IMG/VR virus record: IMGVR_UViG_3300027708_000013
Source: a virus
Lineage: Duplodnaviria > Caudoviricetes
Direction: 5' to 3' (one strand)
Length of the DNA stretch: 64,000 bases
Both the position numbers and the translations under genes were made by a program. Shown piece by piece: positions 592-19,460 of the stretch; the stretch's first letter is position 1, and every line of letters begins with the position of its first letter. Under the pieces are notes generated by a model, which made no database searches, was not told the origin of the DNA, and saw only the letters and a program-made list of their open reading frames with translations.

Positions 592-599
592 TATTTATA
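592..599 (-). promoter_or_regulatory. T4-type late promoter TATAAATA
   Basis: Exact T4 late -10 consensus, 22 nt upstream of the ATG at 570. Confidence 0.6.
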
Positions 600-3235: not shown

Positions 3236-3238
3236 TTA

Positions 3239-4426
3239 ATGTTTTCCTTAGACAAATTTTACCACATACTACACGATAACCTAATATCACATTTACCACA
3301 CAGTGAATCATTTTGGTGCTATCCTTTTGGCACTTATGATGGTTATGAATCAATTACACAACCAAACCCTCATCAACCAAAAACAAATTTTCAATTTTAT
3401 TTTTATGATCAAGAACCATATTATGACTTTAGTTTAGATATAATTAAAAATTATATTGAAAACTCGCATAGACGAATGAATCGTTTTTGCATACTGGCCA
3501 ATAGTGAACATTCAGAATTAAAAACTCAATTCATCAACTACAATGAATATTACGATTGGTATTATTTTTTTCACGGTTTTGTGGCACTAGATTGGTATCG
3601 AGATTTTCAATATATGAATCCAAATTCATTTAATCAGTTTGATAAAGTATTTATATGTTACAATCACCTGACTAGTAAATTTCGATCTTATCGTTTACAT
3701 CTTGTGTCTAATTTGATACTGCAGGATTTAATACCATATGGTAGAGTAAGTTTATTCCTTGACGATAGCACAGGTACATGGCAACAAGCAATACAAGATC
3801 CTGAAAGTCTTTTAGACTCTCGAGCTAAAATTAAAATATACACGGCGCTTAAAGATCGCACTGAACCGTTGACCATAGACACTGCTACTCCAGTGGGCAA
3901 TTTAAGTGCCACGGTTAATTTTAAAGATTTAACCAGTGCGTTATGGCATATAGTTACTGAAACTGTGTACTTTGACAGTAAACTACATCTAACAGAAAAA
4001 ATATTTAAACCCATTGTTGCTCGGCGTCCGTTCATACTTGTAGCAGCTCCGGGTAATCTTGCCTATTTAAAAAGTTATGGCTTTCGCACATTTGATCGTT
4101 GGATAGACGAAAGTTACGACCAAGAAACTGATCATTACTTAAGAATAGAAAAAATAACAGAGGAAATAGCAAAATTGTGTGCCCGTGAACCCAGTGATTT
4201 GATCATGATGCATGAAGAGATGCAAGAGGTATTGGAATATAATTTCAATCACTTTTATATAACATTTAAAGATCTTATAGTAGACGAACTAGTAGATAAC
4301 TTTGAACAAGTGATTGATCAAATAAATTGTACACCAACTCCAATGGTACATGTTGTTCAACCACACCAACATATTGATTTTCCAGAAAACTATTTGGCAG
4401 AAGTTAAAAAACGTCTTAAGCAATAA
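3239..4426 (+). CDS. glycosyltransferase-like protein (GT10/fucosyltransferase-like TEK motif family of large phages)
   Basis: IVTETVY...LTEKIFKPI...PFILV...LKSYGFRTF...IDESYD block; paralogous to 33718-34782; AT-rich and inverted relative to neighbours. Confidence 0.55.
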   Translation: MFSLDKFYHILHDNLISHLPHSESFWCYPFGTYDGYESITQPNPHQPKTNFQFYFYDQEPYYDFSLDIIKNYIENSHRRMNRFCILANSEHSELKTQFINYNEYYDWYYFFHGFVALDWYRDFQYMNPNSFNQFDKVFICYNHLTSKFRSYRLHLVSNLILQDLIPYGRVSLFLDDSTGTWQQAIQDPESLLDSRAKIKIYTALKDRTEPLTIDTATPVGNLSATVNFKDLTSALWHIVTETVYFDSKLHLTEKIFKPIVARRPFILVAAPGNLAYLKSYGFRTFDRWIDESYDQETDHYLRIEKITEEIAKLCAREPSDLIMMHEEMQEVLEYNFNHFYITFKDLIVDELVDNFEQVIDQINCTPTPMVHVVQPHQHIDFPENYLAEVKKRLKQ

Positions 4427-4429
4427 ATA
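4423..4429 (+). promoter_or_regulatory. late-type promoter ATAAATA
   Basis: TAAATA core 42 nt upstream of the 4471 operon. Confidence 0.45.
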
Positions 4430-4470
4430 CTTGAAATAGAACAGTTGAAACTGTCAAACAAGGATCTGGA

Positions 4471-4752
4471 ATGGGTGATATATTTAAGGTCATAGGCGAT
4501 CTAGGAATGCCAGTGGTTGCAGCATTGGCGGGAGGATACTTTGTGTATCTCACATTGAAATTGTTATTGGCTGGAGTACTCAGCAACATCAAAAGCATGG
4601 CCGGTATCATTACAGCCCTGGACAATAGAGTTAAAACAATGAATCATGATGTCATAAGAATTGACACTGTGGTGTCAAATGCACTAGGATTAAAACCAGA
4701 TGTAGAACGCATTAGTCGTGCAGATGGTAAGTCAGATGCGAGACGCGACTAA
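4471..4752 (+). CDS. small membrane protein (YvrJ/BhlA-holin-like), paralogue 1
   Basis: N-terminal TM (LGMPVVAALAGGYFVYLTLKLLLAGVL) then coiled coil LDNRVKTMNHDVIRID. Confidence 0.6.
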   Translation: MGDIFKVIGDLGMPVVAALAGGYFVYLTLKLLLAGVLSNIKSMAGIITALDNRVKTMNHDVIRIDTVVSNALGLKPDVERISRADGKSDARRD

Positions 4753-4931
4753 TGAAACACTGGGACTACGAGTGGGACATTTACCCTAACTATCTACTAA
4801 TAGATCGCGAGTTAAATTTAGATTGCTTGGGATGGAAAGCAGGAGATCTATTTAGACTTGAAAATTATAATGGTCAGCCCATGCTTAAAAAAGTTGACCC
4901 TGTGGAAAAATTTGTAAGAGGATACGAGTAA
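4752..4931 (+). CDS. hypothetical 59-aa protein (MKHWDYEWDIYPNY...VRGYE)
   Basis: Below the track cut-off; joined to both neighbours by TAATG overlaps. Confidence 0.7.
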   Translation: MKHWDYEWDIYPNYLLIDRELNLDCLGWKAGDLFRLENYNGQPMLKKVDPVEKFVRGYE

Positions 4932-5242
4932 TGGACATTGTAGAACTGGTAAACAAATATGGATTCCCTGTTGTAATGATGGTGGGCCTGGGCTATATTA
5001 TAAAATATGTATGGGAATGGGCAACAAAAGAAGTTAAACCTGTTATCTCAGATGCCAACACTGTGCTTATTGCACTGATTGACCGTATTCGTATGTTGGA
5101 CAACGATCTTATCAGATTGAATCAAAAGGTCAATACTGTGTTACACTTACGTGGCAAAAGCATCGAGCATGAACGTGTAGCAGCTGAACGAGAAATTAAC
5201 AAAACTGTTGATGATCGAGAAGCCTCGGGCGGTAACGGTTAA
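4931..5242 (+). CDS. small membrane protein (YvrJ/BhlA-holin-like), paralogue 2
   Basis: KYGFPVVMMVGLGYIIKYVW TM then LIDRIRMLDNDLIRLN, which aligns by eye with 4471-4752. Confidence 0.6.
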   Translation: MDIVELVNKYGFPVVMMVGLGYIIKYVWEWATKEVKPVISDANTVLIALIDRIRMLDNDLIRLNQKVNTVLHLRGKSIEHERVAAEREINKTVDDREASGGNG

Positions 5243-7252
5243 TTACTTGCTGGTGGCACGGTAGGTGCCTGACCAGTCTTTAGGCACACCTTCTGCCAAT
5301 CTCAAGCTCATGCTTTTGTAGTACTCAGTTAACTCTGGCGATTGATTCGTACAATACTCTACCATTTGTAGTGCCTTCTTCCAGTTGCCAGCATAGTAGT
5401 GTCTTAAAAACTCTTGATGACCCAATTTAGTTTCAGCCAGTGTATAAATTTTTACACCTTGAGTTTTACCTTTTACAGCAATACAATCTAGTTCGGCTAC
5501 GGGATATGTATCTTTTACCAATTCCGCAGTGCGTTGACCAAGTACAATTTTGACACCGTACGGCTTGCTTTGTCCTTCCAGTCTACTCGCCAAATTGACG
5601 CCATCGCCCAAGCAAGTATAGTCAAAGCGTTGATCAGATCCCATGTTACCCACCACAACACTTGCACTGTTGATGCCAAGCCCCATGCCAAAAGCCGGCA
5701 CACCTTCTGCTGTAATTTCTCTATTAAATTCATCCAAACTCTCCATCATTTCCAACGCTGTGCGTACTGCGTCTACCGCATGTTGTGGGTTATCTAACGG
5801 TGCGTTCCAAAATGCCATCTGTGCATCACCAATGTATTTGTCCAGTGTGCCTTTGTTCTCAAGTATACGTTTGGTCATTGCTGTCATGTAACGATTCATG
5901 ATCTTTGTAAGACCCTGTACATCTGCTCCGTAATGTTCACTAATGGTGGTGAATCCACGCACATCGGTAAACATGATGGACAGTTCACGTTCCTCACCAC
6001 CCAAGGTCAACAGTTCTGGTTGACGCTGTAACTGTGCCACTAGGTCCGGACTTAGATAAGTTCCAAACTGCCGTTTAATCTGTTGTTTTTGTAGGAACTC
6101 GCTTACAAATTTAACACCATAGGCATGAAGCATAACCAGTACAAGGCCAGCGACCAAACCAGTAACATCAATAAGCCAATGGTACTGCGAGTAAGCCAAC
6201 TGGCTAGCAAAAACAACCCCCACAACAACCCCCACACTAGATATGATTCCCACATACATCCACCTCGTTAAAAATAGTAGTACTACTGCCAACACAGCCA
6301 ATCCCGCAAGTTCTGCACCATCTGCCCAAGCGGGTCTTTGTATATTTACACCACGAGCCACAGTTGCTATTACTGCAGCCTGTACGTCTTGTGGCCACAC
6401 AGCACCCACAGCAGTGGGCACTGGATTTGCTATGCCCGCGGCCGTAACCCCCACTATCACTATAGAATTATCGAACGTGTTGGGCAAATCTGTCATACTG
6501 ACCGCACGACTGCGTTGACTCCAGTCAATCCAAATTCTTCCTGACCTGTCAGTGTCAAGTATGCCTATACCACCGGGTCCACGCATCTTTTCAATACCCA
6601 ACTCACTCATTTTGATTTGAAAGTTAGTGTTGCCCTCTGCTGTCATCAGTGTGGCTAAACTGGCAGATGGATACAAGTTGCCATCAATTGCTACTACCAA
6701 GGGCATGCGACGAACAACACCATCAATTTCTGGCAGTGTGTTAACTATGCCCGAGCTTGCCGCAGCAAACTCTAAAGCAGGAATGTTTGCTATCATGCCG
6801 GGATAAGTGACTATGAGTTCGCCGTGATTGCTTCCAATAACGCTGGAGCCGGGTGGGCGTGGTGTGTTTTTATTTTGACCTGCAGGAATGTTGCTGAGTA
6901 CTACCGGATACTTCTTCAATACTTGAATCAGTGCGGCATCACCACCGGATCTATCCCGTTCACTCATTACAATGTTAAACACCACTAAGCCGGCACCTCT
7001 TTTGTAAAGGTCTCGGATCAAGTCAGCATACACACGCCGATCAAAAGGATACTGCCCATGCTGTGCTAGTGCGGCTTCGTCTATATTAATTGTGTAAATG
7101 TTGTTTAGTGTGGGTGCTTTGGCAGTGATTACAGTGTCAAAATATCTTAGTCTTACACTTTCAACAAATGTAGGATCTGCAATTCTAACGGCCAACACTA
7201 GTGCCAGTGTAAGCAAGGCTGTCCAAGGTGAGGTTAATATTTTTTTCATCAT
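5243..7252 (-). CDS. CHASE2-domain class III adenylate cyclase (membrane sensor)
   Basis: N-terminal TM, CHASE2 motifs (IDEAAL...YPFDRR, DGVVRRMPL), three TMs, then FTDVRGFT, DKYIGDA, RFDYT, GDGVNLASRLEG, VKGK. Confidence 0.93.
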   Translation of the reverse strand: MMKKILTSPWTALLTLALVLAVRIADPTFVESVRLRYFDTVITAKAPTLNNIYTINIDEAALAQHGQYPFDRRVYADLIRDLYKRGAGLVVFNIVMSERDRSGGDAALIQVLKKYPVVLSNIPAGQNKNTPRPPGSSVIGSNHGELIVTYPGMIANIPALEFAAASSGIVNTLPEIDGVVRRMPLVVAIDGNLYPSASLATLMTAEGNTNFQIKMSELGIEKMRGPGGIGILDTDRSGRIWIDWSQRSRAVSMTDLPNTFDNSIVIVGVTAAGIANPVPTAVGAVWPQDVQAAVIATVARGVNIQRPAWADGAELAGLAVLAVVLLFLTRWMYVGIISSVGVVVGVVFASQLAYSQYHWLIDVTGLVAGLVLVMLHAYGVKFVSEFLQKQQIKRQFGTYLSPDLVAQLQRQPELLTLGGEERELSIMFTDVRGFTTISEHYGADVQGLTKIMNRYMTAMTKRILENKGTLDKYIGDAQMAFWNAPLDNPQHAVDAVRTALEMMESLDEFNREITAEGVPAFGMGLGINSASVVVGNMGSDQRFDYTCLGDGVNLASRLEGQSKPYGVKIVLGQRTAELVKDTYPVAELDCIAVKGKTQGVKIYTLAETKLGHQEFLRHYYAGNWKKALQMVEYCTNQSPELTEYYKSMSLRLAEGVPKDWSGTYRATSK

Positions 7253-8133
7253 TGTATTTTAAACTTTACGTATTCTGTAATTAAATCAGCCACATCTACA
7301 CCACAATAGGTTTCAAATCCCAAAAATCCTGGATTACTGTTGGCCTCGCATACTCTAAAACCTCTGGTGTCGAACAGGAGGTCTATGCCGGCTATGTCCA
7401 AGTTCAGTGCCTTGGCAGTTTCTCTGGCTAAAAAATCTATTTCTTCTGTAACTTCAAAGTTTGAACCAGTGCCACCATTGGTGATGTTGGCACGAAAATC
7501 GCCTTCGGGTGCTGTGCGTTTCATTGCACCTATTACTTTGCCACCTATCACCAGCACACGTAGATCTTCGCCCACACGTTCACCGAGATATTCTTGTACT
7601 ATCAATGTTTTTTTATTGCCTAGATTTTTAATAAACTCCATGAGCTTTTTAAAATCTCTACTGCGTTCGCAGAGATAAACCCCTTCGCCGTACGATCCTG
7701 TAACAACCTTGACCACACAGGGAAATCCTATGTTTTCTTTAACCAAAGTCTCGTCTATGGGGAAACGCACCATCATGGTGTTGGGAATGGGTATACCGTG
7801 GCGGCTTAGAATCTGGCTGGTACGCAGTTTGTCTTTTACAGTTTCTATAGCAGTGGCGCCATTTACACAGGGTACACCGGCTTGTTCAAAATGACGCACC
7901 ACAGCCAACTGAAATGGTAGTATGCCGGCGCCCAATCGTACTAGGACTAGTTTGGGCATTTCAATGGTTTCACCTCGCAGTTTGATGCCTTGACGTATGT
8001 TACGATCCACAATGATGTCAAAATCATCAGGGTGTGCCATCACAGCATCAATGTTCTTTTTAGCAAAACTCTCCATTAATCGCTCGCACTCGTATTCGTT
8101 GCGATCTAATTTAGTTAATATCAACACTGTCAT
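7249..8133 (-). CDS. rimK: RimK-family ATP-grasp alpha-L-glutamate ligase
   Basis: DKLRTSQIL, PCVVKVVTGSYGEGV, VQEYL, DLRVLVIG, FRANITNGG, GIDLL, EANSNPG. Confidence 0.85.
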   Translation of the reverse strand: MTVLILTKLDRNEYECERLMESFAKKNIDAVMAHPDDFDIIVDRNIRQGIKLRGETIEMPKLVLVRLGAGILPFQLAVVRHFEQAGVPCVNGATAIETVKDKLRTSQILSRHGIPIPNTMMVRFPIDETLVKENIGFPCVVKVVTGSYGEGVYLCERSRDFKKLMEFIKNLGNKKTLIVQEYLGERVGEDLRVLVIGGKVIGAMKRTAPEGDFRANITNGGTGSNFEVTEEIDFLARETAKALNLDIAGIDLLFDTRGFRVCEANSNPGFLGFETYCGVDVADLITEYVKFKIQ

Positions 8134-8885
8134 TGAATTTCATTCCAAGTTACTATTTCCCAACTGCCGTCCCAATTTTCCACAAGAGCCGAGCAACTTT
8201 CTACCCAGTCCCCATCGTTCATGTACACAATGCCTTCTATGTCACGTATTTCTGCTGTGTGTATGTGTCCACATATTATACCATCGTAACCCTTGCTTCT
8301 ACAATAGTTGGCCAATAATCGTTCAAAATTTAATATATACGCCACTGCCTGTTTGGTATTGTGTTTGATCCATTTGCTCATGCTCCAGTAGGGCAAGCCT
8401 AACCAACTGCGAACCACAGCATGATAATCATTGAGTTTGATAATAATGTCGTATAACTTGTCACCAATGTGCATGAGCCAACGTCCCGAACTGGCATGCA
8501 TCAAACTGTCAAACATGTCTCCGTGTACTATTAGATATCTATTGCCATCTAATCCTACATGTTCATAGCGATTCACCACAGTTAAATTGCCCAGTACCGG
8601 AATAAAATGCAACCATTTTCTTAAAACTTCGTCATGGTTGCCTACGACATAAACAACCTGTGTGCCTTTTTTAGCAATTTTTAATATTTTACGTATGATG
8701 TCGGAATGACTTTCGGGCCAATACCACGATTGACTCAATCGCCAACCATCAACAATGTCGCCTACCAAGTAAAGATGGTCTGCTGTGTTGTGTTTGAGAA
8801 AATTCTTTAACAGCTCGGCCTTGCAACCTCTACTGCCTAAATGTACATCGCTGATTGATATGGTTCTATACTTGTTTTTTGACAT
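8130..8885 (-). CDS. calcineurin-like metallophosphoesterase (UDP-2,3-diacylglucosamine hydrolase-like)
   Basis: SDVHLG, VGDIVDGW, GNHD, HGD, GHIH and NDGDWVESCSAL motifs. Confidence 0.85.
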   Translation of the reverse strand: MSKNKYRTISISDVHLGSRGCKAELLKNFLKHNTADHLYLVGDIVDGWRLSQSWYWPESHSDIIRKILKIAKKGTQVVYVVGNHDEVLRKWLHFIPVLGNLTVVNRYEHVGLDGNRYLIVHGDMFDSLMHASSGRWLMHIGDKLYDIIIKLNDYHAVVRSWLGLPYWSMSKWIKHNTKQAVAYILNFERLLANYCRSKGYDGIICGHIHTAEIRDIEGIVYMNDGDWVESCSALVENWDGSWEIVTWNEIQ

Positions 8886-8903
8886 GATGTTTGATAAAAA
8901 CAG

Positions 8904-9188
8904 TTACAGAGATTTGCCGAGTTTTTTTACACCAAAAGCCAACCCACAAGCATATTCTCCTTGCAATTCTACCAAGGTCCAAGTGCCAGTAGTTTCATTA
9001 CGAAACATTACAACCATACTTTTTTTATCGTTCTGCAGATTATAGTCCGTAAATGTCGGAACTTCTCCGTATCGTTTCAGCTCCTTAATAGCCAGTTCAA
9101 CTGGCGCACAAGTAACAGGTTTAAATGTTTCAATGTTTTGTGCCGATACAACAACAGGGAACATAAGTGCGAGCAAGAGTTTTTGCAT
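8904..9188 (-). CDS. small secreted protein
   Basis: Signal-peptide-like MQKLLLALMFPVVVSA from ATG 9188, just downstream of the ATAAATA box. Confidence 0.6.
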   Translation of the reverse strand: MQKLLLALMFPVVVSAQNIETFKPVTCAPVELAIKELKRYGEVPTFTDYNLQNDKKSMVVMFRNETTGTWTLVELQGEYACGLAFGVKKLGKSL

Positions 9189-9210
9189 AGTGGATCCAAT
9201 CAATTTACAG

Positions 9211-9217
9211 TATTTAT
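9211..9217 (-). promoter_or_regulatory. late-type promoter ATAAATA
   Basis: TAAATA core upstream of the run 9188 to metallophosphoesterase to rimK to cyclase. Confidence 0.45.
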
Positions 9218-9251
9218 TGAGCGTTAACACCCTGTTGTAAAAACGTATGGT

Positions 9252-9821
9252 TTAATTGCGTATATAACTATAATTGCCGCAACCGGAACTGCATTGTATC
9301 GACATACTGCCTTGATTGGCCTGTGTGGGACTAGTCTGTTGTACAGTGACCGTGGCACCCAAGGCACCATTTAAGTTTAAATCAAACGTTTTATTAGCAC
9401 CTACACCACCGCTTTGTGTAACATCTACTGTGTTGTTGTTGTTTGTTGTTCCGGTTGCATTGGTTATAGTTAAATTATGTGCACCGGCACCGGTTTGACT
9501 GATATTGAAGTTGTTAGCAGATCCTGAGAGATTTTGTATAGCGGCTGTGTGATTACCACTGCCATCTTGAAATAGTACAACTCCATTGTTAATGCCCGAA
9601 ACAATTTCAACGCCGACTGTTTTGGCGCCTGTGCCCTGTTGCGTGATTGAAATATTGGTATAGTCCACTGATGAAGTGTTGCCTAGATTAACTGTGGTAC
9701 TGTGGTTGTTGCCATCTTGAATTATTGTGGTAGTGTTATTATTACCAATTTGATCAATGTTGATAGTGTTGTCTGCGGCCCAGGCAACATTAAGCATCAA
9801 TAATAATAATAATTTTTTCAT
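9252..9821 (-). CDS. curlin-repeat protein (CsgA/CsgB-like), short
   Basis: Signal peptide MKKLLLLLMLNVAWA; repeated N-x-h-x-I-x-Q-x-G-x-x-N units (NTINIDQIGNNN, NISITQQGTG, NNFNISQTGAG, NTVDVTQSGG); N/Q/G/T/S-rich. Confidence 0.8.
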   Translation of the reverse strand: MKKLLLLLMLNVAWAADNTINIDQIGNNNTTTIIQDGNNHSTTVNLGNTSSVDYTNISITQQGTGAKTVGVEIVSGINNGVVLFQDGSGNHTAAIQNLSGSANNFNISQTGAGAHNLTITNATGTTNNNNTVDVTQSGGVGANKTFDLNLNGALGATVTVQQTSPTQANQGSMSIQCSSGCGNYSYIRN

Positions 9822-10942
9822 TTTTGTATCACTGTAATCACAGTACTGTTGCCTGAATTCACACGATTTTTAAAATCCAATACACCTTGTGTCATGTAGA
9901 TAGTAGTGTTTTGTGTAGCAGGTACAGTTACACTCATTACATTGCTACCATCGTCACGTGCTAAAGTTATCTTGGGCTCTTGTATATCAACAGTAATGCC
10001 ACTGATAGCATTGTAGTCGGGCAATAATTTATTACTAGTTGTGTTTAATAAATTTAATTGTGCTTTCATTTGAGCATCCACAATGTCAAGAATATTAGCA
10101 AGGAAATTTTGATCAAGAAAGTTACGGGCAAGTTTGTCCTGGAATACTTCTCGAGCCTGTGCGTCTAAAGCATTGGCTAGTCCTTGCTCTTTGAGAAAAT
10201 CCATATCCAATGCAGATTTCATTTCCATTCGAGTAGTAGTTCGATCTTCTTTATTAAGTTCCTTGGGAGGTGATACAATTAACATATTATTAATGGCATC
10301 TTCACTAAGTCGAAGGATAACTGGTTTTGGCGGAGGATTATTACGTGACTCTACCTTGATTGCTTGAAATGCTATATTAAGTGTAACAATGCCGGCATCA
10401 GTAGTAACATCGATGGCACCTGTTACACATTCGTCTATACTTTGATATCCAAGACGACAGCTGGGCAATAAAATAATTGTACTGGTCCCTAACTCGTCAA
10501 CTGTGGCAGTAAAATCAGTTCCGCGAACAGCAATGGTTGCTGTGGGCGTGTTAATAGATACTTTATTAGCCGGATTATGTGCTATAACGCCTGAAGCATA
10601 TCTCACTGTGCCTGCGGCCATGTTGAGTGCTAATTTTCCAGCACTGGGTTTTTTAGGATCGTAAACAAAATCATCAATGATCAAACGACTATTTTCATTT
10701 ACTTGTACTCGAGTGTCATCTGCAAATGTAATGCCAACTTTACCCTGGGCTGTCCGTACGGTGTCGTTCATCTCCATCCCAGTGCCCTTGTTCGCTGTCA
10801 GTGTCGTTGTTGAGCGTTGTATTGAACCCGGACTGTTTATTTGTTCTGTCACTGTTCCTATTGCCGCTATGCAATTCAGTGATGTACTCATCAAGAGTAC
10901 GCATAATACGTCCGTCCATATTAGTCTCCTGGTCTGAATCAT
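9818..10942 (-). CDS. FecR-domain secreted/periplasmic protein with curlin-like C-terminus
   Basis: Signal peptide; FecR pattern MNDTVRTAQGKVGITFADDTRVQVNENSRL...TPTATIAVRGTDF; ends NTTIYMTQG...NSTVITVIQK. Confidence 0.85.
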   Translation of the reverse strand: MIQTRRLIWTDVLCVLLMSTSLNCIAAIGTVTEQINSPGSIQRSTTTLTANKGTGMEMNDTVRTAQGKVGITFADDTRVQVNENSRLIIDDFVYDPKKPSAGKLALNMAAGTVRYASGVIAHNPANKVSINTPTATIAVRGTDFTATVDELGTSTIILLPSCRLGYQSIDECVTGAIDVTTDAGIVTLNIAFQAIKVESRNNPPPKPVILRLSEDAINNMLIVSPPKELNKEDRTTTRMEMKSALDMDFLKEQGLANALDAQAREVFQDKLARNFLDQNFLANILDIVDAQMKAQLNLLNTTSNKLLPDYNAISGITVDIQEPKITLARDDGSNVMSVTVPATQNTTIYMTQGVLDFKNRVNSGNSTVITVIQK

Positions 10943-10943
10943 G

Positions 10944-11858
10944 TTATCTAATAGCTGGCAATGTAACCGGTGCTGTTAATAAGGGCACACCAGAACCTTG
11001 ACTGATATTAACTGTGTTGCTGTTACCGCTAATTTTTACGTTGGCATCATTGGTGGAGCCACCGCCAGCACCTTGATTAATACCAACCCAGTTACTACTA
11101 CCAGTTAAGCCAATGTTGGCCGAGTTGTTGCTACCGTTTTGTACTACAGTAACAGCATTGTCGTTACCAACCAAGGCATCACCACTGGCATAACCTGCTA
11201 TAGATGTGGTATTACCGGCGCCGTTTTGTTTAATGTCAAACGAGTTAGCAATCCCATCAGCGTTGATACCAATTGTGTTGGTGCCGCCGGCTTGATCAGT
11301 GACAACTGTATTTTGTCCGCCAGTTGATAATGATACATTAACGGAGGTAGAGTTATCTCTGATCTTGGTTTGTACATTATCGCCTTGGCCCTCTGTAGTT
11401 ACACTAACAGTATTACCTGAACCTTGTACATCAGCTTTAAAGTTTGCACCGCCTCCGGTTTGAGTGACATCAATTTGAATATTAGATGCTGTGCCTTGAC
11501 CACTGGCATTGACGTCAATTAATGCTGTGTTGTTATTGCCGCCTGACACACTGTAGTTAATGTTGGCCGATACACCGTTAGTAGTTGTTGCAGTAACCCC
11601 AAGTGATAATGTGTTGCCTGCTCCGACTTGGTTTACATTAATTTGTGAATTACTTCCGTTGAGAGTTGCGGCATCTTGCCCTTTGACCCCTGGTGCTCCA
11701 TTGACAATACCTTTGACAGTGTTGCCTGTTCCATCTTGTGTTATATTGATTACGGCATTGTCGCCTGCTTGATCAATATAGATGCTGTTGTCCACAGCAA
11801 TCACATGTGCCGATATCATCATGGCCATTATTGTTGTTATTATTCTAGCTTTTTTCAT
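10944..11858 (-). CDS. curlin-repeat protein (CsgA-like), long, 304 aa
   Basis: SD AAGGAG before MKKARII signal peptide; at least 8 curlin-type units (NSIYIDQAGDN, VINITQDGTGN, QINVNQVGAGN, NSFDIKQNGAGN, NAVTVVQNGSNN). Confidence 0.8.
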   Translation of the reverse strand: MKKARIITTIMAMMISAHVIAVDNSIYIDQAGDNAVINITQDGTGNTVKGIVNGAPGVKGQDAATLNGSNSQINVNQVGAGNTLSLGVTATTTNGVSANINYSVSGGNNNTALIDVNASGQGTASNIQIDVTQTGGGANFKADVQGSGNTVSVTTEGQGDNVQTKIRDNSTSVNVSLSTGGQNTVVTDQAGGTNTIGINADGIANSFDIKQNGAGNTTSIAGYASGDALVGNDNAVTVVQNGSNNSANIGLTGSSNWVGINQGAGGGSTNDANVKISGNSNTVNISQGSGVPLLTAPVTLPAIR

Positions 11859-11887
11859 TTTTAATTCTCCTTGGCTCTTATTGGCCA

Positions 11888-12688
11888 TTATTCTGAACCC
11901 TTGGGTTCTTGAAAATCCCACACCGCCTTTCGTTGACCTTCTTTAATTAATTCCACCACGGCCGCTTCAATTGTTGCTTTGACGGCCAACGTACCGGGTT
12001 CATTGATTGTTAGTCCGGTTTCAAATTCAAATGCCTGTGTACCATTATCTAAAAATTTCAGCACTGCTACACTGTCGGCAGTGCTGTACACTAATTTTGT
12101 CACAGTGACTGCTGCCAATATCTTGCCGGTGTTGACTGATACAGCACGTAGGCTCACTGTGACAATATCTTTACTGTACTGGGTTTGTGTACCAATACCT
12201 AAAAATCTATGTGCCGCTCCTCCAGATTCCATGCCGGTGTCGTAACCAATGATACCACCTTCCATGATGATGCCGGCAAACTGCAAGGGCATGAGTGGTT
12301 TGGCATCTTTGCCTTCGTAGGCTTCACGCATTTGTTTCACTATCATGCGTTCTTTGGTAAGTGCGTCAATGTTTACTCGTTCCACTACTTCAAACCAAGC
12401 ACCATGTCCTACATCTTGTAGTGCTTTGATTAAGAATACTTCACCGCCCTGTGTCACCGCTGTTGACAAACTGGCAATGCCGGGAGTGGGTCTACGTTGA
12501 CCTGTTTTGTCGGCAAACTGATACACAGCCACACTTAATCGTTTACCACCACTTGGAGGAGGTACTGCGTCAAATTCTTTTTGCATGACATTGGCAGCTA
12601 CTCGAGGCTCAAATCGAAATCCTGCCTTTTGAGTCACAGCACATCCACTGAGCAAAGCCACTATTAATAAAGATAAGATCAGTTTCAT
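11888..12688 (-). CDS. csgG: curli secretion channel CsgG (outer-membrane lipoprotein)
   Basis: Lipobox LLSGC; VAVYQFADKTGQRRP, STAVTQG, WFEVVER..L..L..ER.I, GGIIGYD, QYSKD.VTVSLRAVSV.TG.IL, NEPG. Confidence 0.92.
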   Translation of the reverse strand: MKLILSLLIVALLSGCAVTQKAGFRFEPRVAANVMQKEFDAVPPPSGGKRLSVAVYQFADKTGQRRPTPGIASLSTAVTQGGEVFLIKALQDVGHGAWFEVVERVNIDALTKERMIVKQMREAYEGKDAKPLMPLQFAGIIMEGGIIGYDTGMESGGAAHRFLGIGTQTQYSKDIVTVSLRAVSVNTGKILAAVTVTKLVYSTADSVAVLKFLDNGTQAFEFETGLTINEPGTLAVKATIEAAVVELIKEGQRKAVWDFQEPKGSE

Positions 12689-12689
12689 A

Positions 12690-13154
12690 TCAATTTCCAA
12701 ATTGGAACGAACCCAAGGGTACAGTTACCTGTGTTTGATTGCCCACGGAGTCTGTCACAGTCATGTAAATATTACCACTGTCCCGACTCCAAAATATAGT
12801 ATTACCTTCAAAATTCATTGTGCCCGACGTACTACCACCTGACGCAAACATGGCAGTGGCTAAATTTTGACTGATCTGTGCATAGATACGACTTTCCAAG
12901 TTGTTCATAAACTTGCTGATATTGGTATTGGCTGCTTCTGCTCGGGCTTTATCCAATGCGGACTGTATGTCTTTGGCCACTTGCTGTCTACGAGTGTATT
13001 CTTGATTTTCAATCGTGAGAATATGACTGCTATAGCCGGACCCGTTAAAACTGGGACTTTTAAATGAATAGTCTGCTATAGGAGTGGCAAAGGCAAAAGG
13101 TGCCCATACTATGGCACCAAATGCTAGATAAAACTTATTATAATTTTTATACAT
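12690..13154 (-). CDS. csgF: curli assembly protein CsgF
   Basis: Signal peptide then YSFKSPSFNGSGY (CsgF pattern Y.F.NPSFGG), FMNNLESRIYAQIS, GTMNFEG, TQVTVP; directly upstream of csgG. Confidence 0.85.
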   Translation of the reverse strand: MYKNYNKFYLAFGAIVWAPFAFATPIADYSFKSPSFNGSGYSSHILTIENQEYTRRQQVAKDIQSALDKARAEAANTNISKFMNNLESRIYAQISQNLATAMFASGGSTSGTMNFEGNTIFWSRDSGNIYMTVTDSVGNQTQVTVPLGSFQFGN

Positions 13155-13170
13155 ACTCTAGCTCCTAGTG

Positions 13171-13177
13171 TATTTAC
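13171..13177 (-). promoter_or_regulatory. late-type promoter GTAAATA heading the curli module
   Basis: TAAATA core followed by SD TAGGAG and the csgF ATG. Confidence 0.55.
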
Positions 13178-13212
13178 TAAGATTTTGAGTATGTTAATAA
13201 CGCATTAGAACG

Positions 13213-13749
13213 TTAAGTACGTTTAATGCCTAGTTGATGGTAGACATGTTGTACTGCCTGTGCTTGACTTATGCAATCTTCCAAGGCGTTGTGAAGTCCT
13301 GCTTTGTTCCGTTCACGTGGGTCACCGTGTACACCAAACAATGTTCTGCTGTCGCGAATCTGCCAATAGTTCCAAGGTATGGGGCAATCCATTTGACGAT
13401 AGAGGTTTTCCAAAATAGCAATGTCAAACACAGGACCTTGACACCAGATGTTGTCAACTCCCACCAGAAATCGGTTCAACTGTTGATACATTTCTCTCAA
13501 GGAAACTCTGTTGTGTTCGCCAAATGCTTCTTCGTATACATCTGCACTTTGCCTACTCCACCATTCCAGTGTGTCATCCTGTACTGTTCTGCCCAGGGCA
13601 GTTTGCTCATCCACATTGATTCTAAAGTAGAGACCGTTGTCACCACGGATAGTGTCACTGAATGGGTCAAACTTCACAGCACCAAGAGTCAATACCACAC
13701 AATCTGGACGTGTGCCTAGGGTTTCTAAATCAAGCATGCAAGCAGTCAT
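13213..13749 (-). CDS. DEDDh 3'-5' exoribonuclease (Rv2179c/RNase AS-like)
   Basis: MLDLETLG, QGPVFDIAIL, RDSRT, HNALEDC. Confidence 0.85.
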   Translation of the reverse strand: MTACMLDLETLGTRPDCVVLTLGAVKFDPFSDTIRGDNGLYFRINVDEQTALGRTVQDDTLEWWSRQSADVYEEAFGEHNRVSLREMYQQLNRFLVGVDNIWCQGPVFDIAILENLYRQMDCPIPWNYWQIRDSRTLFGVHGDPRERNKAGLHNALEDCISQAQAVQHVYHQLGIKRT

Positions 13750-13755
13750 AGTGTT

Positions 13756-13784
13756 ATTATACTGGGTTATTTGGCGGTTGTCAA
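13756..13784 (-). promoter_or_regulatory. sigma70-type promoter TTGACA-N17-TATAAT
   Basis: Perfect consensus read on the minus strand. Confidence 0.8.
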
Positions 13785-14246
13785 GAGTTTTGATGATTCG
13801 GCTGCCACCACTCGTTTGCGTAGACTACTGCTACTAAACGAATGATCTCTTCCGTTGAATATGCATCGAATGTTTCTTTGAGCACAGGCTTGATCACCAC
13901 TGAAGGGTTTGCCTTCGTATTCCACACCCAACACACGTACATCAATTGGCAGAATCAACAATAGATCAATGAGATCTTGTTCGGTCTGATACACCACCAC
14001 TTCATCCACATATCTACAAGCGGCCAATTGTATCTGTCGTTCCACTACACTTTGTATGGGCGAATTTTTAGTGTCGGGTCTATCTATAGTGGGATCTGTT
14101 TGTAATCCACAAATTAAATAGTCGCAGTGATTTCTGGCTTCGGCCAACATGGCTATGTGGCCAGCATGCAACATGTCAAAGGCACTGAATGTGATGCCAA
14201 TGATTTTACCCTGTTCTTTCAGTGTTCTAACTTTATTGAATATCAT
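13767..14246 (-). CDS. tagD: glycerol-3-phosphate cytidylyltransferase-like nucleotidyltransferase
   Basis: FSAFDMLHAGH (HxGH), CRYVDEV, C-terminal SSSSLR. Confidence 0.8.
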   Translation of the reverse strand: MIFNKVRTLKEQGKIIGITFSAFDMLHAGHIAMLAEARNHCDYLICGLQTDPTIDRPDTKNSPIQSVVERQIQLAACRYVDEVVVYQTEQDLIDLLLILPIDVRVLGVEYEGKPFSGDQACAQRNIRCIFNGRDHSFSSSSLRKRVVAAESSKLLTTAK

Positions 14247-14249
14247 TTA

Positions 14250-15671
14250 TTATTTTCCTTGAATATTATTTTGATCTTTGAGAAATGCGTATAACAATAT
14301 CTGACCACTGGGTTTTATTCCTGTAAGAACAGCTGGCAAATTAAAATATTTTACACTCTCAACACAATGTTCCGGGGATACATTTTTAGCAATTGACTCA
14401 TTGAGTACAGCAAGATCGGTATTCAATGTCGAATCAAACAATGCCAAATAGATTTTGTTATTAGTAAAATCTGGAACCAATTGAAAATTAGTTGGATGGT
14501 AACAAGTACGTAGGTAATTTTCTAACTCTTGTATATAAACAGTCTTATTGTCTATAGTAAATGAATATGTACGACCTTGATAGAACAACTTATCATCATC
14601 CTCTACAAACCCATCAGCAAGTGTGTGCCATTCGTACCCAGTTCTCCGAGCATGAACAAGATTTTTTTCTAGTATAAATTCCAGACCAGGTGCACGTTCA
14701 GTAAACAAGTTATTTACATAATTCCTATAATTACTTTTTGTCACTCTCGAAATAAACATGGTACCTATTTCGCTACAACCAAATTGATTTATAATTTCTT
14801 TGGGATTAATATTTTCAAAAATCCAACTGCAAATATTTGCATCATATCCACGCAAAGTACGAATTGATAACTGGCCTCCCATATCTATAGGAGTTGTTTG
14901 ATCAAAATAATTAACCCATTCGTAGGGAATAATAATAGTAGTTAGTTTGTACTTTTGAATATAAGGCAGTACTAAATTTAGATAATTTTTTGCATTATAA
15001 TTTTCTCCAGTAGTAGCAGATGTCATGGTCCTGATAAAATAGTGTTCTGTTGCAACACTTAATAGGGGTAACGCATAGTCGATAAAAAGTGCCCCATGAT
15101 GGAAAGTTTTAAAATGAAAAGGACGATCTTTATCATTGTACCCGTGAAATGACGCTATTTCTCTTGTGCGATCAATTAAGTGCCGATGTGTAAAATCAAC
15201 TATTTTTGGCCTACCTGTTGTGCCGCTTGTGTGCGTTTTTATAGCCACAGTTGACGTAGATATCTCTATGCAGTCGCTATCTTCGTATTGATTAGCATTA
15301 TTGTAATTGCGTAAATTAATTGATGGCGTATCAAATGAGTTGACTGATCTCGAGGTTGCGGGGTGTGGTATTGATAAATCGATAAAATTATAAAAATCTT
15401 TGAATTCTGGTATTTGAGTAAAACCAACATTGAGATCGTGTACAAATAAATTACCGCCTAACTCCCATACAGCCAGTATTATAGGCACTACCCAATCAAA
15501 ATCATTGATGCCTACATAAATTGTTTTACTGTATGTATTGTCATTTAGTTCTTGACGTATTTGTTTTTTAAGAAAACATTTACGGTTTTGTATCTCTGAG
15601 GGGTTGATTTTTTGGCCAAAAAAATCAACCAATGAACAATCGTCCCTAATTAACTCTGATGCATTATTCAT
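14250..15671 (-). CDS. divergent ANL-superfamily adenylate-forming (AMP-binding) enzyme
   Basis: A3 loop HTSGTTGRPK, A5-like FGCSEIG, A8-like QGR; visibly AT-rich. Confidence 0.6.
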   Translation of the reverse strand: MNNASELIRDDCSLVDFFGQKINPSEIQNRKCFLKKQIRQELNDNTYSKTIYVGINDFDWVVPIILAVWELGGNLFVHDLNVGFTQIPEFKDFYNFIDLSIPHPATSRSVNSFDTPSINLRNYNNANQYEDSDCIEISTSTVAIKTHTSGTTGRPKIVDFTHRHLIDRTREIASFHGYNDKDRPFHFKTFHHGALFIDYALPLLSVATEHYFIRTMTSATTGENYNAKNYLNLVLPYIQKYKLTTIIIPYEWVNYFDQTTPIDMGGQLSIRTLRGYDANICSWIFENINPKEIINQFGCSEIGTMFISRVTKSNYRNYVNNLFTERAPGLEFILEKNLVHARRTGYEWHTLADGFVEDDDKLFYQGRTYSFTIDNKTVYIQELENYLRTCYHPTNFQLVPDFTNNKIYLALFDSTLNTDLAVLNESIAKNVSPEHCVESVKYFNLPAVLTGIKPSGQILLYAFLKDQNNIQGK

Positions 15672-16597
15672 TGGTTGACCTGAATACCTTGTTGTTCGAT
15701 AAATTTCCGGTTATCATTGATTGTTTTTATAATAAAACGATTAAATTCGTTTGCATTTCTGGTCCAAATTTTACCATGTACTATTTCGACTATTTCTTTT
15801 ACTTCCGGAGTTTGTAAAGCCTGCATAATATCAATTTGTATTTGTTTGGCTTTATCTTTTGCTATTGATTTATTAATAAAAAATGCAATTTGTCCGTTAC
15901 TTATATTAAATTTATCACCAAAAAATTCTTGTGCAGTGGGCACATCAGGAAACGCAGGATCCTGTTTTTCAGCTGTTGTTGCTAACCAATTTAATTTACC
16001 ACTGTTACGATATTGTTTAGTAGATCCAATGCTTCCGCATGAAAATGCCAGTTCGCCGCCGGCTACATCGGCGAACCATTGGCTGTATTCTTTATACGGC
16101 ACGTGAGTAACTGATAGGCCTAACATTTTTGCCACTTCGATGCCGCAAAAATGTCCGGCAGAGCCAACCCCCCATGACCCGTAAAAAGGCCTGTCTTTAA
16201 TGATTGTACGTAAATCGTCTAGCGTTCGAATTTTGTTGTTGGTAAATATCACCCAATCATTACTATAAAATGGTGCCAATACTTGTAACTTTGCAAATTG
16301 TTCTTCTTTGTTATACAGTATAGGCATGGTACTCCAGGCACCATGATCAAGCATTAATATAGTGTGATTACTTGCAGGTTCGTTAACGTAATAGTTCAGT
16401 GCTACCACCCCTGCAGCACCGGGTCGATTTTCAATTAATACTGGGGTATTCCATTTAATAGTGAGTACTTCTGCTAACTTTCGTGCCACTGTGTCTGGTG
16501 CAGAACCCGTTGGTAGATTTAAAACTATTCTAACAGGTTCTGCGTGTGCAGACGCAACCAATAGTAAAGTTATTAAAAATTTTAATATACTTTTCAT
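15668..16597 (-). CDS. Bug/TctC tripartite tricarboxylate transporter substrate-binding protein
   Basis: Signal peptide; PTGSAPDTVAR, ENRPGAAG, GSWGVGSAGH, HVPYK, LATT...P.FPDVPT. Confidence 0.85.
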   Translation of the reverse strand: MKSILKFLITLLLVASAHAEPVRIVLNLPTGSAPDTVARKLAEVLTIKWNTPVLIENRPGAAGVVALNYYVNEPASNHTILMLDHGAWSTMPILYNKEEQFAKLQVLAPFYSNDWVIFTNNKIRTLDDLRTIIKDRPFYGSWGVGSAGHFCGIEVAKMLGLSVTHVPYKEYSQWFADVAGGELAFSCGSIGSTKQYRNSGKLNWLATTAEKQDPAFPDVPTAQEFFGDKFNISNGQIAFFINKSIAKDKAKQIQIDIMQALQTPEVKEIVEIVHGKIWTRNANEFNRFIIKTINDNRKFIEQQGIQVNQ

Positions 16598-16603
16598 TGA
16601 ATA

Positions 16604-16918
16604 TTATTCTGATTGAATTTTAACTTGTAGCGGAAAGCCCGAACTTCTGGCCAACAGTGTCACTTCAATGCCTTTTTGTTCCGCTAGTTCATAAGGCAAG
16701 GTTGCCACCACTGCGGAGCCTTCTTCATGCACACGTAGAGTCAATGTTTCTGCACTTTCTCTGGCATAGTTAAACACTGATGTCAGTGTTTCTATAACAA
16801 ATTCTTGTGTGGTAACATCGTCGTTTACGTAAATTACATTGTAGTCGTTGGGTGTTTCTACTTGTTCCCGCGGAGCAATTCTAGGTCTTACAGAGGTTTT
16901 GGTTTTAATGTCTGGCAT
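16604..16918 (-). CDS. clpS: ATP-dependent Clp protease adaptor ClpS
   Basis: YNVIYVNDDVTTQEFV, VHEEGSAVV, AEQK, GFPLQVKI; start moved to ATG 16918, just after a GTAAATA box (16929-16935). Confidence 0.9.
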   Translation of the reverse strand: MPDIKTKTSVRPRIAPREQVETPNDYNVIYVNDDVTTQEFVIETLTSVFNYARESAETLTLRVHEEGSAVVATLPYELAEQKGIEVTLLARSSGFPLQVKIQSE

Positions 16919-16934
16919 AATTGTACTATATTTA

Positions 16935-16958
16935 CAAGGGCGGGTGATTCCGCCCTTG
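16935..16958 (-). terminator. GC-rich hairpin after hsp20 (no U-tract; terminator or processing/stability element)
   Basis: 9-bp stem caagggcgg/ccgcccttg with a 6-nt loop. Confidence 0.5.
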
Positions 16959-16964
16959 AACTGC

Positions 16965-17420
16965 TTACTTGGTAAAAGTAATGTTGATTTTCTTAGGTTG
17001 CTTTTCTTCTGGAACAATATGTTCCAATGCAACAGCCAAGATACCGTGTTGCACAGTGGCACCACGTACTTCTACATCATCGGCCAAGGTAAATGTACGA
17101 ACAAAGTTTCTAGTTGAAATACCTTTGTGCTGATACTCAATCTCTACTTCGGGCTTGGTTTGCTCGCCCTTGACTGTTAGTACACCATCCTTTAATTCTA
17201 CATCTAATTCGCTTTCTTTGAATCCAGCCACAGCAATTTCCACCACATAGTGTGTATCGTCCAATCGGGCGATGTTGTATGGAGGATAATTACCATCTTG
17301 TTTGCTGTTGGCAAAAGTGCGATTCAAGTCATCAAACATACGATCAACCCCAATGGCGTGACGATGTAGTTGTGCGTGAAATGCAGGTAAATCTAGGGTG
17401 TGAAGTGTGAAATTTGTCAT
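16965..17420 (-). CDS. hsp20: small heat-shock protein Hsp20 (IbpA-like)
   Basis: YPPYNI, EIAVAGF, HKGISTRNFVRTFTL, GILAV.L...VPEE..P..I.I; SD AAGGAG. Confidence 0.93.
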   Translation of the reverse strand: MTNFTLHTLDLPAFHAQLHRHAIGVDRMFDDLNRTFANSKQDGNYPPYNIARLDDTHYVVEIAVAGFKESELDVELKDGVLTVKGEQTKPEVEIEYQHKGISTRNFVRTFTLADDVEVRGATVQHGILAVALEHIVPEEKQPKKINITFTK

Positions 17421-17759: not shown

Positions 17760-19460
17760 TTATTTACCCATTACTGTGTTGACTTGTTGAATTTCCACGT
17801 CCGACAAATCATCAACACTGTATTCTCCAGTGCTAATCTTTTCAGCCAGGTATTGAATATACGCATCGTTGTAGTTGTAGATGTCTGTGGATCGTTTGTT
17901 GATTTCTATCCATTTGACATCGTTCCATTTAAACAGTCTTGAAGGTTTAAAATCGGTTCTTAAAAACATATCACCACGACCAGGAGCATCAGGAAAACCG
18001 ACCCCAAAATCTGCTGAGGGCTGACGTGCAGGCAATGTTTGTATTATTTCTTCTACTATTTCTTCAGGTGTCAAAGACATAGAATCTTCAGGAAAAACTA
18101 CAGGATCGTCCTCTTCTGTAACCGGTACAGCAGGCATTGACGCTATGATATCCAGTTCCTGTGCCAATTCATCGGCACGAGTCATTTCGTAACTGTGTGC
18201 AGAAAACAATTGATCACGTTCTTGTTGTAATATTTCTAATCTTTGCGTAAGTGTGTCAACATGCCGAGTAAGATCTTGTTCACGTCCCAGGGTGCGTAGG
18301 CACTGGTCAGTTATCGAGTTGTGATCCTCTGTTAATTCTTGTAATGCCCGTTGTGTTAGTTCCAGTTCGCGAGTTCTTTCGTTTAATGCTTGTTCTTGAT
18401 TTTGTACAAATTCCACTAGTAATTCAGCATCACGTTGTGCCTGTTGTAGATCCTGTTCAAGACTTGACACACGTGGATCGTCCGTTGCAACAGCGGCAAC
18501 CACTGTGTGTTCTGCTGTTTCATCATCAGCATCATCTAGTACGGTGTATTTGATTTCTCGTTCCACTTCTGCGTCGGCCAATTGATGGTTGACGGTATCG
18601 AAGTCAACCACAGGTGGAGGCGGGGGCTGTACAGGTTCAAGTTGAATTTCGGGGTGTGTGTTTTTTGGTGTAATTTCATTAACTAATTCTTTTAATACAG
18701 GAGTCTTTTTATCCCACTCCAGCTGTTTTAATCCGGCAATGATCAACATCAATGCCAAGGGATCAAACACCAACACAATCAACACAATCACCCAGCGTAC
18801 TGCACGTTCTAGGCTTTCAGCACTGGTATTGTCACTGCTGATCATTGCGGCTACATATTTTAACGGTCCGACTTCAGCTTCCACTTTCCTAACTTCTGCG
18901 GCAATCGGCGCTCGCTCCTGGTTGAGAGCGGTGATCCTTTGTTGAGCCGCTGTAATGTCCTGAGAGATGCGACTACGTTCTTTCTGCTGGCTCTTTCGAA
19001 CACTACTGGATCTACTCGCCCCTTCTTCCGTAGTTGAGCGTGCCATAACTTGGTCCACAGCCTCATCCATCTGTTTGAGTTGTTTGCGATTGGCATCTAT
19101 GTTCTCCCGTTCGGTTTTGATCTTTTCATCAATGATTTCAACTTGTGCTTGTATGTTGCCTGTGGGAATAGCCTGATCTAAATGTGCTTTGGAAAGGAAT
19201 CCAAAAACACCAATGGATGTCAGCAACATTAAAAATATCAGGGCCGGAACTAGATACAGTTTGTATTGTACTCCAGCTCGTTGCCAGTTCTGATGTAACC
19301 AAACCGCTGCCATAATTTTACCAGCTTCCAAGGTTATGCCCATGACAATGATGGGAACAGTGGCGGCAGCAAATATAGCAGTCAATCCCAGTACAGAGTA
19401 ATAAGCCGAAACAGCCGAAATGGCCATGGCAATTAAGAGAGTTGTTATTCCAAGTATCAT
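17760..19460 (-). CDS. membrane-anchored coiled-coil protein of large T4-like phages
   Basis: Three N-terminal hydrophobic helices, long coiled coils, a further TM (VIVLIVLVFDPLAL), C-terminal FPDAPGRGDMFLRTD. Confidence 0.7.
   Translation of the reverse strand: MILGITTLLIAMAISAVSAYYSVLGLTAIFAAATVPIIVMGITLEAGKIMAAVWLHQNWQRAGVQYKLYLVPALIFLMLLTSIGVFGFLSKAHLDQAIPTGNIQAQVEIIDEKIKTERENIDANRKQLKQMDEAVDQVMARSTTEEGASRSSSVRKSQQKERSRISQDITAAQQRITALNQERAPIAAEVRKVEAEVGPLKYVAAMISSDNTSAESLERAVRWVIVLIVLVFDPLALMLIIAGLKQLEWDKKTPVLKELVNEITPKNTHPEIQLEPVQPPPPPVVDFDTVNHQLADAEVEREIKYTVLDDADDETAEHTVVAAVATDDPRVSSLEQDLQQAQRDAELLVEFVQNQEQALNERTRELELTQRALQELTEDHNSITDQCLRTLGREQDLTRHVDTLTQRLEILQQERDQLFSAHSYEMTRADELAQELDIIASMPAVPVTEEDDPVVFPEDSMSLTPEEIVEEIIQTLPARQPSADFGVGFPDAPGRGDMFLRTDFKPSRLFKWNDVKWIEINKRSTDIYNYNDAYIQYLAEKISTGEYSVDDLSDVEIQQVNTVMGK

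Follow-up and report, generated by a model that had tools for sequence, protein, structure and literature searches.

The 64,000-nucleotide (nt) stretch of DNA analyzed here, IMG/VR virus record IMGVR_UViG_3300027708_000013 (hereafter the window), carries at positions 9252 to 13154 five adjoining genes that an initial annotation, made from the sequence alone, had read as a phage-encoded curli system including its amyloid subunits. All lie on the minus strand, as do all genes of 5243-13749. In the direction of transcription, csgF (12690-13154; Pfam CsgF PF10614, 49.3 bits with a cut-off of 25.8) is followed by csgG (11888-12688; Pfam CsgG PF03783, 154.1 bits, cut-off 20.8), by the gene for a protein of 304 amino acids (aa) with approx. 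12 curlin-type repeats, here called curlin A (10944-11858; Pfam Curlin_rpt, 26.8 bits, cut-off 20.7), by the gene for a periplasmic FecR-fold protein (9818-10942; Pfam FecR, 44.4 bits, cut-off 24) and by the gene for a 189-aa protein with approx. 6 curlin repeats, curlin B (9252-9821; Pfam Curlin_rpt, 34.6 bits, cut-off 20.7). The conserved last gene of the module, which comes after it in nearly all loci and directly after curlin B in many relatives, encodes a CHASE2 adenylate/guanylate cyclase (5243-7252; Pfam CHASE2, E = 7e-40; Guanylate_cyc, E = 2e-20). Adjoining genes are separated by 1 nt (csgF and csgG), 29 nt (csgG and curlin A) and 1 nt (curlin A and FecR), and the FecR and curlin B genes overlap by 4 nt. 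Gene identities, coordinates, lengths, repeat structure, shared orientation and tight coupling (junctions of no more than 29 nt) were thus as the initial annotation had described them, and the Curlin_rpt, CsgG and CsgF profiles that it had named as a check all scored above the Pfam cut-offs.

Curlin A has 304 aa when read from the ATG at 11858, although its longest open reading frame (ORF) begins at a GTG at 11921; for CsgG the most likely start is the ATG at 12688, which places a lipobox (L-S-G-C) near the N-terminus. Signal peptides and lipobox, both judged by direct reading of the sequence, agree with the earlier description of a CsgF with signal peptide, a lipoprotein CsgG and two signal-peptide repeat proteins. 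In CsgF, curlin A, the FecR-fold protein and curlin B, positive charge at the N-terminus is followed by a hydrophobic core and by a cleavage site of the A-x-A type. An ORF-by-ORF scan with Pfam and NCBIfam that covered 595-17065 of the window found no csgE, csgC or csgD among 19 ORFs, and the initial annotation had recognized none either.

The contig that bears the window's csgG is 340,958 nt long, and the DNA is of freshwater metagenomic origin. A scan of IMG/VR returned 73 related loci (designated by L numbers where they need to be told apart); in approx. 45 of these, on contigs of up to 357 kb, CsgG is 64-81% identical to that of the window. A protein search gave thousands of environmental relatives, and among 50,697 phage records FecR and CsgG genes occurred only in HTVC008M and Melnitz. 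The gene order csgF-csgG-curlin-FecR-(curlin)-cyclase is kept in these two phages and in practically all 73 IMG/VR loci (tblastn and curlin profiles). The occurrence of the module in a freshwater jumbo phage lineage, where it is common, is new here.

Pfam and profile matches to solved CsgA fibrils identify both repeat proteins as true curlin homologues, as does AlphaFold2 modeling for curlin A. A profile built from the relatives of curlin A (alignment A4) matched the cryo-electron microscopy fibril of Pontibacter CsgA (8C50) with E = 2e-27 and the E. coli CsgA fibril (8ENQ) with E = 1.5e-5, and the corresponding curlin B profile (alignment A3) matched 8C50 with E = 3e-20; by these comparisons the repeats in both proteins are far beyond chance. 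AlphaFold2 run on A4 gave a regular all-beta solenoid of approx. 24 strands (predicted local distance difference test score, pLDDT, 78.5; predicted template modeling score, pTM, 0.77), the fold that the initial annotation had expected. With this model, Foldseek found nothing significant in the PDB, and CsgA was recovered by an exhaustive VIA-align search instead, in which 8c50_A was the top match (Z = 24.9, 27% identity over 238 aligned residues), the second-best match was an unrelated solenoid (Z = 17.0) and 8enq_A had a Z of 15.2. The fibril matches and the solenoid model bear out the proposal that plausible CsgG/CsgF substrates are encoded alongside the pore genes.

The Q, G and N of every curlin B repeat are invariant in 18 relatives, as is a C-terminal cap with two cysteines (C-x(2-4)-C-G...S-Y). 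A curlin A-type subunit accompanies the pore throughout, i.e., in every related locus that reaches that far, a curlin-like ORF comes directly after csgG. The first repeat of mature curlin A is nearly invariant (D-N-S-I-Y-I-D-Q-x-G-D-N and variants); a recognizable form of it opens the curlin region of every subunit, those of marine phages included, and in subunits with an extra N-terminal domain it comes after that domain. We infer from this conservation that the first repeat may serve in targeting to the pore or as a polymerization face. Curlin A and curlin B, both compact and with clear homologues, lend themselves to a first biochemical test of a viral curlin.

The products of the two pore genes are predicted to be an outer-membrane lipoprotein channel (CsgG) and a secreted cap and nucleation factor (CsgF). 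CsgG, with 266 aa, matched the E. coli CsgG structures end to end (residues 4-261, E = 7e-42). CsgF was detected through Pfam alone, and its relation to E. coli CsgF is distant, because phmmer found no direct match to E. coli CsgF chains; on reading the sequence, the segment that follows its signal peptide (F-K-S-P-S-F-N-G-S-G) resembles the CsgG-binding N-terminus of E. coli CsgF. In many relatives (L003, L006, L011, L018, L025 and others) the csgG ORFs are longer (356-444 aa), with 90-180 residues beyond the conserved core; proline, threonine and alanine abound in the extension of L004, and the window's CsgG has no such tail.

The FecR-fold protein has a signal peptide and shows no membrane anchor, transmembrane part or anti-sigma domain, and is predicted to be a soluble periplasmic protein. 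Its AlphaFold2 model was mediocre overall (pLDDT 59.7), with pLDDT values of approx. 70-84 in an N-terminal beta domain (residues 29-197), and this domain matched the FecR-type domains of PupR (6OVK) and BDI_1681 (4M0H) in Foldseek (E = 4e-5 to 2e-4). The C-terminus (9818-9970) contains N-T-T-I-Y-M-T-Q-G ... V-I-T-V-I-Q, a series that relatives retain and that is similar to the first curlin repeat; profile-profile comparisons of this segment with the two curlin families were not significant (E = 0.16 and 0.085), and confidence in the model is low there. Together with the cyclase, the protein forms a pairing of a secreted FecR-fold protein with a CHASE2 membrane protein (Pfam) that also occurs outside curli modules. 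Secreted FecR-domain proteins paired with CHASE2 sensors, with no curli genes, were found in L104, L129, L145-L147 and the Pelagibacter loci L084, L085 and L103, and the 'BiofilmReg' operon of Burkholderia has a FecR-domain protein beside a CHASE2 sensor (PMC5192318). Like the Burkholderia operon, the window has a gene for a secreted FecR-domain protein next to one for a membrane protein whose CHASE2 domain is periplasmic; it differs in that the output of the Burkholderia operon is a histidine kinase, that the FecR protein there also has LysM and that no curli genes are attached.

The central claim, i.e., that phages carry a curli system with its subunits, is already published for marine SAR11 phages. 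In pelagiphages of both the podo- and the myo-type, Wittmers et al. 2022 identified the genes for CsgA/B fibers, for FecR and for an adenylate cyclase, noted that CsgC, CsgD and CsgE are absent from the viral modules as they are from alphaproteobacterial modules, and reported metatranscriptome expression, discussing superinfection defense, "sibling capture", aggregation and import (PMC9599517). The novelty that the initial annotation implied is thus not upheld. Two other papers, Zaragoza-Solas 2020 and Buchholz 2022, stated that csgA/csgB are missing and proposed uptake, "sibling capture" or a pore that times lysis (PMC7029224, PMC9004378). The statement in the initial annotation that subunit genes were considered absent, and a lysis role proposed, is correct as an account of the view taken in these two papers; it does not hold for the phages themselves, since HTVC008M and Melnitz carry curlins, and curlin-repeat proteins, FecR and cyclase are already named in the GenBank records of both.

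The pelagiphage module (HTVC023P-type podophages, pelagimyophages such as HTVC008M, and the OM43 phage Melnitz) has the same order as the window, i.e., csgF, csgG, curlin, FecR, second curlin and CHASE2 cyclase; it likewise has no csgC, csgD or csgE, and a first repeat of the form N-x-I-Y-I-x-Q-x-G is common to all subunits. Compared to HTVC008M and Melnitz, CsgF, CsgG, FecR and the cyclase of the window show about 36-45% identity (CsgF 44%, FecR 37-45%, cyclase 36% over the full length), and the curlins 22-30%; BLASTP E values were 1e-32 for CsgF, 1e-71 for CsgG, 1e-67 for FecR, 1e-129 or better for the cyclase and 1e-5 to 1e-10 for the curlins. The window differs from the podophage form in that no histidine kinase gene stands before csgF, and from the pelagiphage module in general in that three genes (for a 94-aa protein, a metallophosphoesterase and a RimK-family ligase; see below) lie between curlin B and the cyclase and in that the carrier is a freshwater phage of approx. 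341 kb. Its curlin B is also short and has no PA14 domain, unlike that of HTVC008M, in which the second curlin (L001:7543-8868) is a PA14 domain fused to curlin repeats. In freshwater loci L008, L018-L021, L033 and L040, the second curlins have 480-860 aa, with an N-terminal domain before the conserved first repeat.

With the curli of E. coli and Salmonella (csgBAC, csgDEFG), the window shares the CsgG lipoprotein channel, CsgF, secreted subunits with Q/N/G ladders and the CsgA solenoid fold. On the other hand, it has no CsgE, CsgC or CsgD, forms one operon as compared to two divergent ones, and has a FecR protein and a cyclase built in. Compared to E. coli, its subunits are 2-3 times longer and have no glycine-rich N22-type leader before the first repeat, and the CsgG constriction loop reads T/S/L rather than Y/N/F.

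The synteny is conserved not only in phages but also in one bacterial lineage. When the FecR alignment was run against prokaryotes, with one genome for each species, the full cassette turned up in seven contigs of metagenome-assembled genomes (L077-L083); all other bacterial matches shared the FecR domain, sometimes adjoining a CHASE2 protein, and had no full cassette. That all seven contigs represent misbinned phage DNA was considered and rejected, as L082 is flanked by ordinary bacterial metabolic genes. At least L080 and L082, both from Caulobacteraceae, are cellular, and L079 looks like phage DNA. L082 (4803-12112) and L080 carry csgF, csgG, two curlins, FecR and CHASE2 cyclase, and the flanking genes of the Caulobacteraceae cassette encode a methylmalonyl-CoA mutase, an acyl-CoA dehydrogenase, an amidohydrolase and a TetR regulator. 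The cassette stands between ordinary metabolic genes and is therefore a working cellular system type. Its six functions, encoded in one string, are those of the window, with CsgF, CsgG, FecR and cyclase 34-46% identical; unlike in the window, both curlin genes come before FecR. This cellular counterpart, which is new here, points to an alphaproteobacterial source or sink of the phage module. A metallophosphoesterase gene also lies approx. 430 nt upstream of the Caulobacteraceae cassette; that it might be a specific homologue of the enzyme encoded in the window was rejected (E = 0.019).

Within the module, the subunit genes differ most among relatives. Median pairwise identities among 33 distinct freshwater loci decrease from CsgG (0.69) through CsgF (0.58), FecR (0.56), cyclase (0.55) and curlin B (0.49) to curlin A (0.42), i.e., within the module curlin A diverges fastest. 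When the window is compared to its closest relative, L004, the flanking genes and the cyclase are 87-99% identical, CsgF is 83% and CsgG 79% identical, and identity drops to 70% for curlin B, 64% for FecR and approx. 40% for curlin A; the window's curlin A is 76-78% identical to that of L042. Maximum-likelihood trees are discordant in the same way. For CsgF, the window groups with L003, L004 and L006 (support 100/97), whereas for curlin A it is sister to L042 (100/100) within an L025-L042 group and for FecR it is sister to that group (99/99); in the CsgG tree it falls outside the L025-L042 group. Because identities and trees conflict in this manner, the curlin A and FecR genes of the window were brought in as a pair by recombination with another sub-lineage, with breakpoints between csgG and curlin A and after FecR, and with csgF, curlin B, the cyclase and the flanks staying with L004. 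The identification of the subunit gene as a hot spot of recombination and divergence is also new here. It is tempting to speculate, although we consider it rather doubtful, that curlin A could act as a swappable type marker, i.e., a lineage-specific amyloid with which co-occurring jumbo phages would coat the cells they infect and which polymerizes only with its own kind, with FecR matched to the subunit that it monitors; if so, kin-specific clumping or an arms race with competing phages and grazers could follow.

A candidate sigma-70-type promoter (TTGACA, 17 nt, TATAAT; 13756-13784, minus strand) lies ahead of the module, upstream of an exoribonuclease gene that precedes csgF. It matches the hexamers at 12 of 12 positions and is the sole perfect site in 5000-14500, and near-identical sites stand upstream of the exoribonuclease gene in L004 and L017-L021. 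A conserved module promoter was not found across all relatives, the sigma-70-type site being common to the closest relatives only. In the window, this site may drive the module.

Overall, we consider it probable, with some reservation, that these genes represent a freshwater jumbo-phage version of a viral type VIII secretion module, which would place curlin fibers on the infected cell and combine them with a FecR-cyclase envelope sensor. What we infer of its operation is as follows. The phage would infect a Gram-negative host, in which the five proteins would be exported by Sec; CsgG would be lipidated and form an outer-membrane channel, and CsgF would cap this channel from outside. The two curlin-repeat proteins would then cross the channel unfolded and polymerize, stacking into beta-solenoid fibers on the cell surface. 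The soluble FecR-fold protein and the CHASE2 cyclase would probably act together in sensing the envelope and producing cyclic nucleotide, and this coupled pair may report subunit traffic or envelope state. If the phage benefits, it would most likely do so through the blocking of competing phages or the clumping of host cells. The signal peptides on all soluble parts, and the adhesin-type PA14 domain on the second curlin of HTVC008M, are signs of an exported fiber role. If the module works in this manner, the virus would give its host a surface-fiber organelle for the length of infection, and planktonic bacteria may consequently change in clumping, sinking, DNA exchange and resistance to other phages. 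The interpretation in the initial annotation is partly supported: the genes and plausible substrates are as it proposed, and the extrusion of functional amyloid by infected cells, be it for aggregation, trapping of progeny, receptor masking or protection from grazing, is conjectural.

Several observations weigh against this reading. No experiment on any viral module has shown fibers, and Buchholz et al. reported that cells infected with Melnitz did not clump (PMC9004378). CsgE, CsgC and CsgD are absent from the ORFs scanned, and CsgG itself departs from the E. coli protein: Y, N and F of the constriction loop are replaced by T, S and L, with an additional one-residue insertion, and, because it scores far under the NCBIfam equivalog cut-off (154.7 bits on NF011731 as compared to 505), it appears to be a divergent family member rather than an equivalog of enterobacterial CsgG. 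A complex prediction with two copies of mature curlin A scored 0.00, below the mark, with controls not run, and as such speaks neither for nor against polymerization. Finally, the signs of expression, which are the upstream sigma-70-type site and contigs of two lake metatranscriptome libraries that agree without mismatch with curlin A, csgF, the exoribonuclease and the cyclase, are limited in that these contigs show neither strand nor level and may represent carried-over DNA.

One alternative explanation is that the module serves mainly in signaling, with FecR and the CHASE2 cyclase sensing a cue from the envelope or from outside and setting cyclic AMP in the infected cell, and with the pore and repeat proteins as, for example, an exposed antenna or ligand trap rather than as builders of a bulk fiber matrix. 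FecR and cyclase are conserved in the module as much as CsgG and CsgF, secreted FecR-domain/CHASE2 pairs recur in bacteria that have no curli genes (PMC5192318), and the FecR fold in PupR is a periplasmic protein-binding domain, all of which would fit such a role. However, full curlin homologues with 6-12 stacking repeats seem more than a sensor needs, and the fiber genes are kept in every lineage. Signaling is also compatible with fibers rather than opposed to them. We regard a module devoted mainly to signaling as unlikely.

A second alternative, to which we give somewhat less credence still, is that CsgG and CsgF form a plain outer-membrane pore, for lysis timing or for uptake or leakage of small molecules, and that the repeat proteins are not its cargo. 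Such a pore was proposed for Melnitz and the pelagimyophages (PMC9004378, PMC7029224), and it would be consistent with a missing gate (CsgE) and with constriction residues smaller than those of E. coli. Both papers assumed that subunit genes are missing, though, which fails; moreover, CsgF and two curlins with signal peptides are conserved beside the pore in three phage lineages and one bacterium, and the surroundings of the module are replication and metabolic genes and not lysis genes, with a sigma-70-type promoter ahead of it. Least of all do we favor the possibility that the repeat proteins are virion fibers or decoration proteins adjoining csgG and csgF by accident: although beta-solenoids are common in tail spikes (many such structures match the curlin A model with Z = 13-15) and curlin A diverges fast and recombines as receptor-binding proteins do, cleavable Sec signal peptides lead out of the cytoplasm, where virions are assembled, the match is curlin-specific (E = 2e-27; Z = 24.9 for CsgA as compared to 17 or less for tail spikes) and no structural gene seen in the window is anywhere near the curlin genes, making this very improbable.

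Upstream of csgF are genes for an Rv2179c-like 3'-5' exoribonuclease (13213-13749, minus strand; Pfam PF16473, E = 4e-36) and a cytidylyltransferase. The exoribonuclease gene adjoins csgF in the closest relatives only and is a neighbor outside the conserved module. Between curlin B and the cyclase, again on the minus strand, are a 94-aa ORF with a signal peptide (8904-9188), an LpxH-like metallophosphoesterase gene (8130-8885; Pfam Metallophos, E = 8e-15) and a gene for a RimK-family alpha-L-glutamate ligase (7249-8133; TIGR00768, 229.9 bits, cut-off 143.4), all three of which are accessory rather than conserved module genes. Neither Pfam nor NCBIfam matched the 94-aa ORF, tblastn found it in none of the 73 viral loci, and it has no recognizable relation to CsgC, CsgE or CsgH (Pfam, NCBIfam, Atlas); its Atlas neighbors are phage proteins without names. 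The metallophosphoesterase scores under the NCBIfam LpxH cut-offs and is found at the same position in some relatives only (tblastn, 73 viral loci), and the RimK insert was found only in L003, L004, L029 and L030. A DNA contig of another metagenome seems, with weak support, to join 7252 straight to 9252.

Further genes lie just upstream of the module, in 14250-17065; their products are an AMP-binding enzyme, a homologue of the ClpS adaptor and a periplasmic solute-binding protein, TctC (Bug family), that begins with a signal peptide. For a phage, such cargo is unusual, and TctC may point to a host among the Betaproteobacteria.

Neither Pfam nor PHROG matched five ORFs of 456-812 aa elsewhere in the window (17760-19460, 24719-26632, 42239-43681, 48622-49992 and 50319-52757). 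In the 50,697 phage records, nothing was found by megablast with 25 kb of the window or by tblastn with the 812-aa ORF. Also encoded in the window, for the most part in one orientation, are a class Ia ribonucleotide reductase, a primase and helicases, DnaB-like ones among them; these predicted genes support a phage origin. The replicative helicase is closest (47%) to those of PA5oct-like and Atu_ph07 jumbo phages, and not to Kyanoviridae, and the ribonucleotide reductase is closest to those of Xanthomonas and Ralstonia phages.

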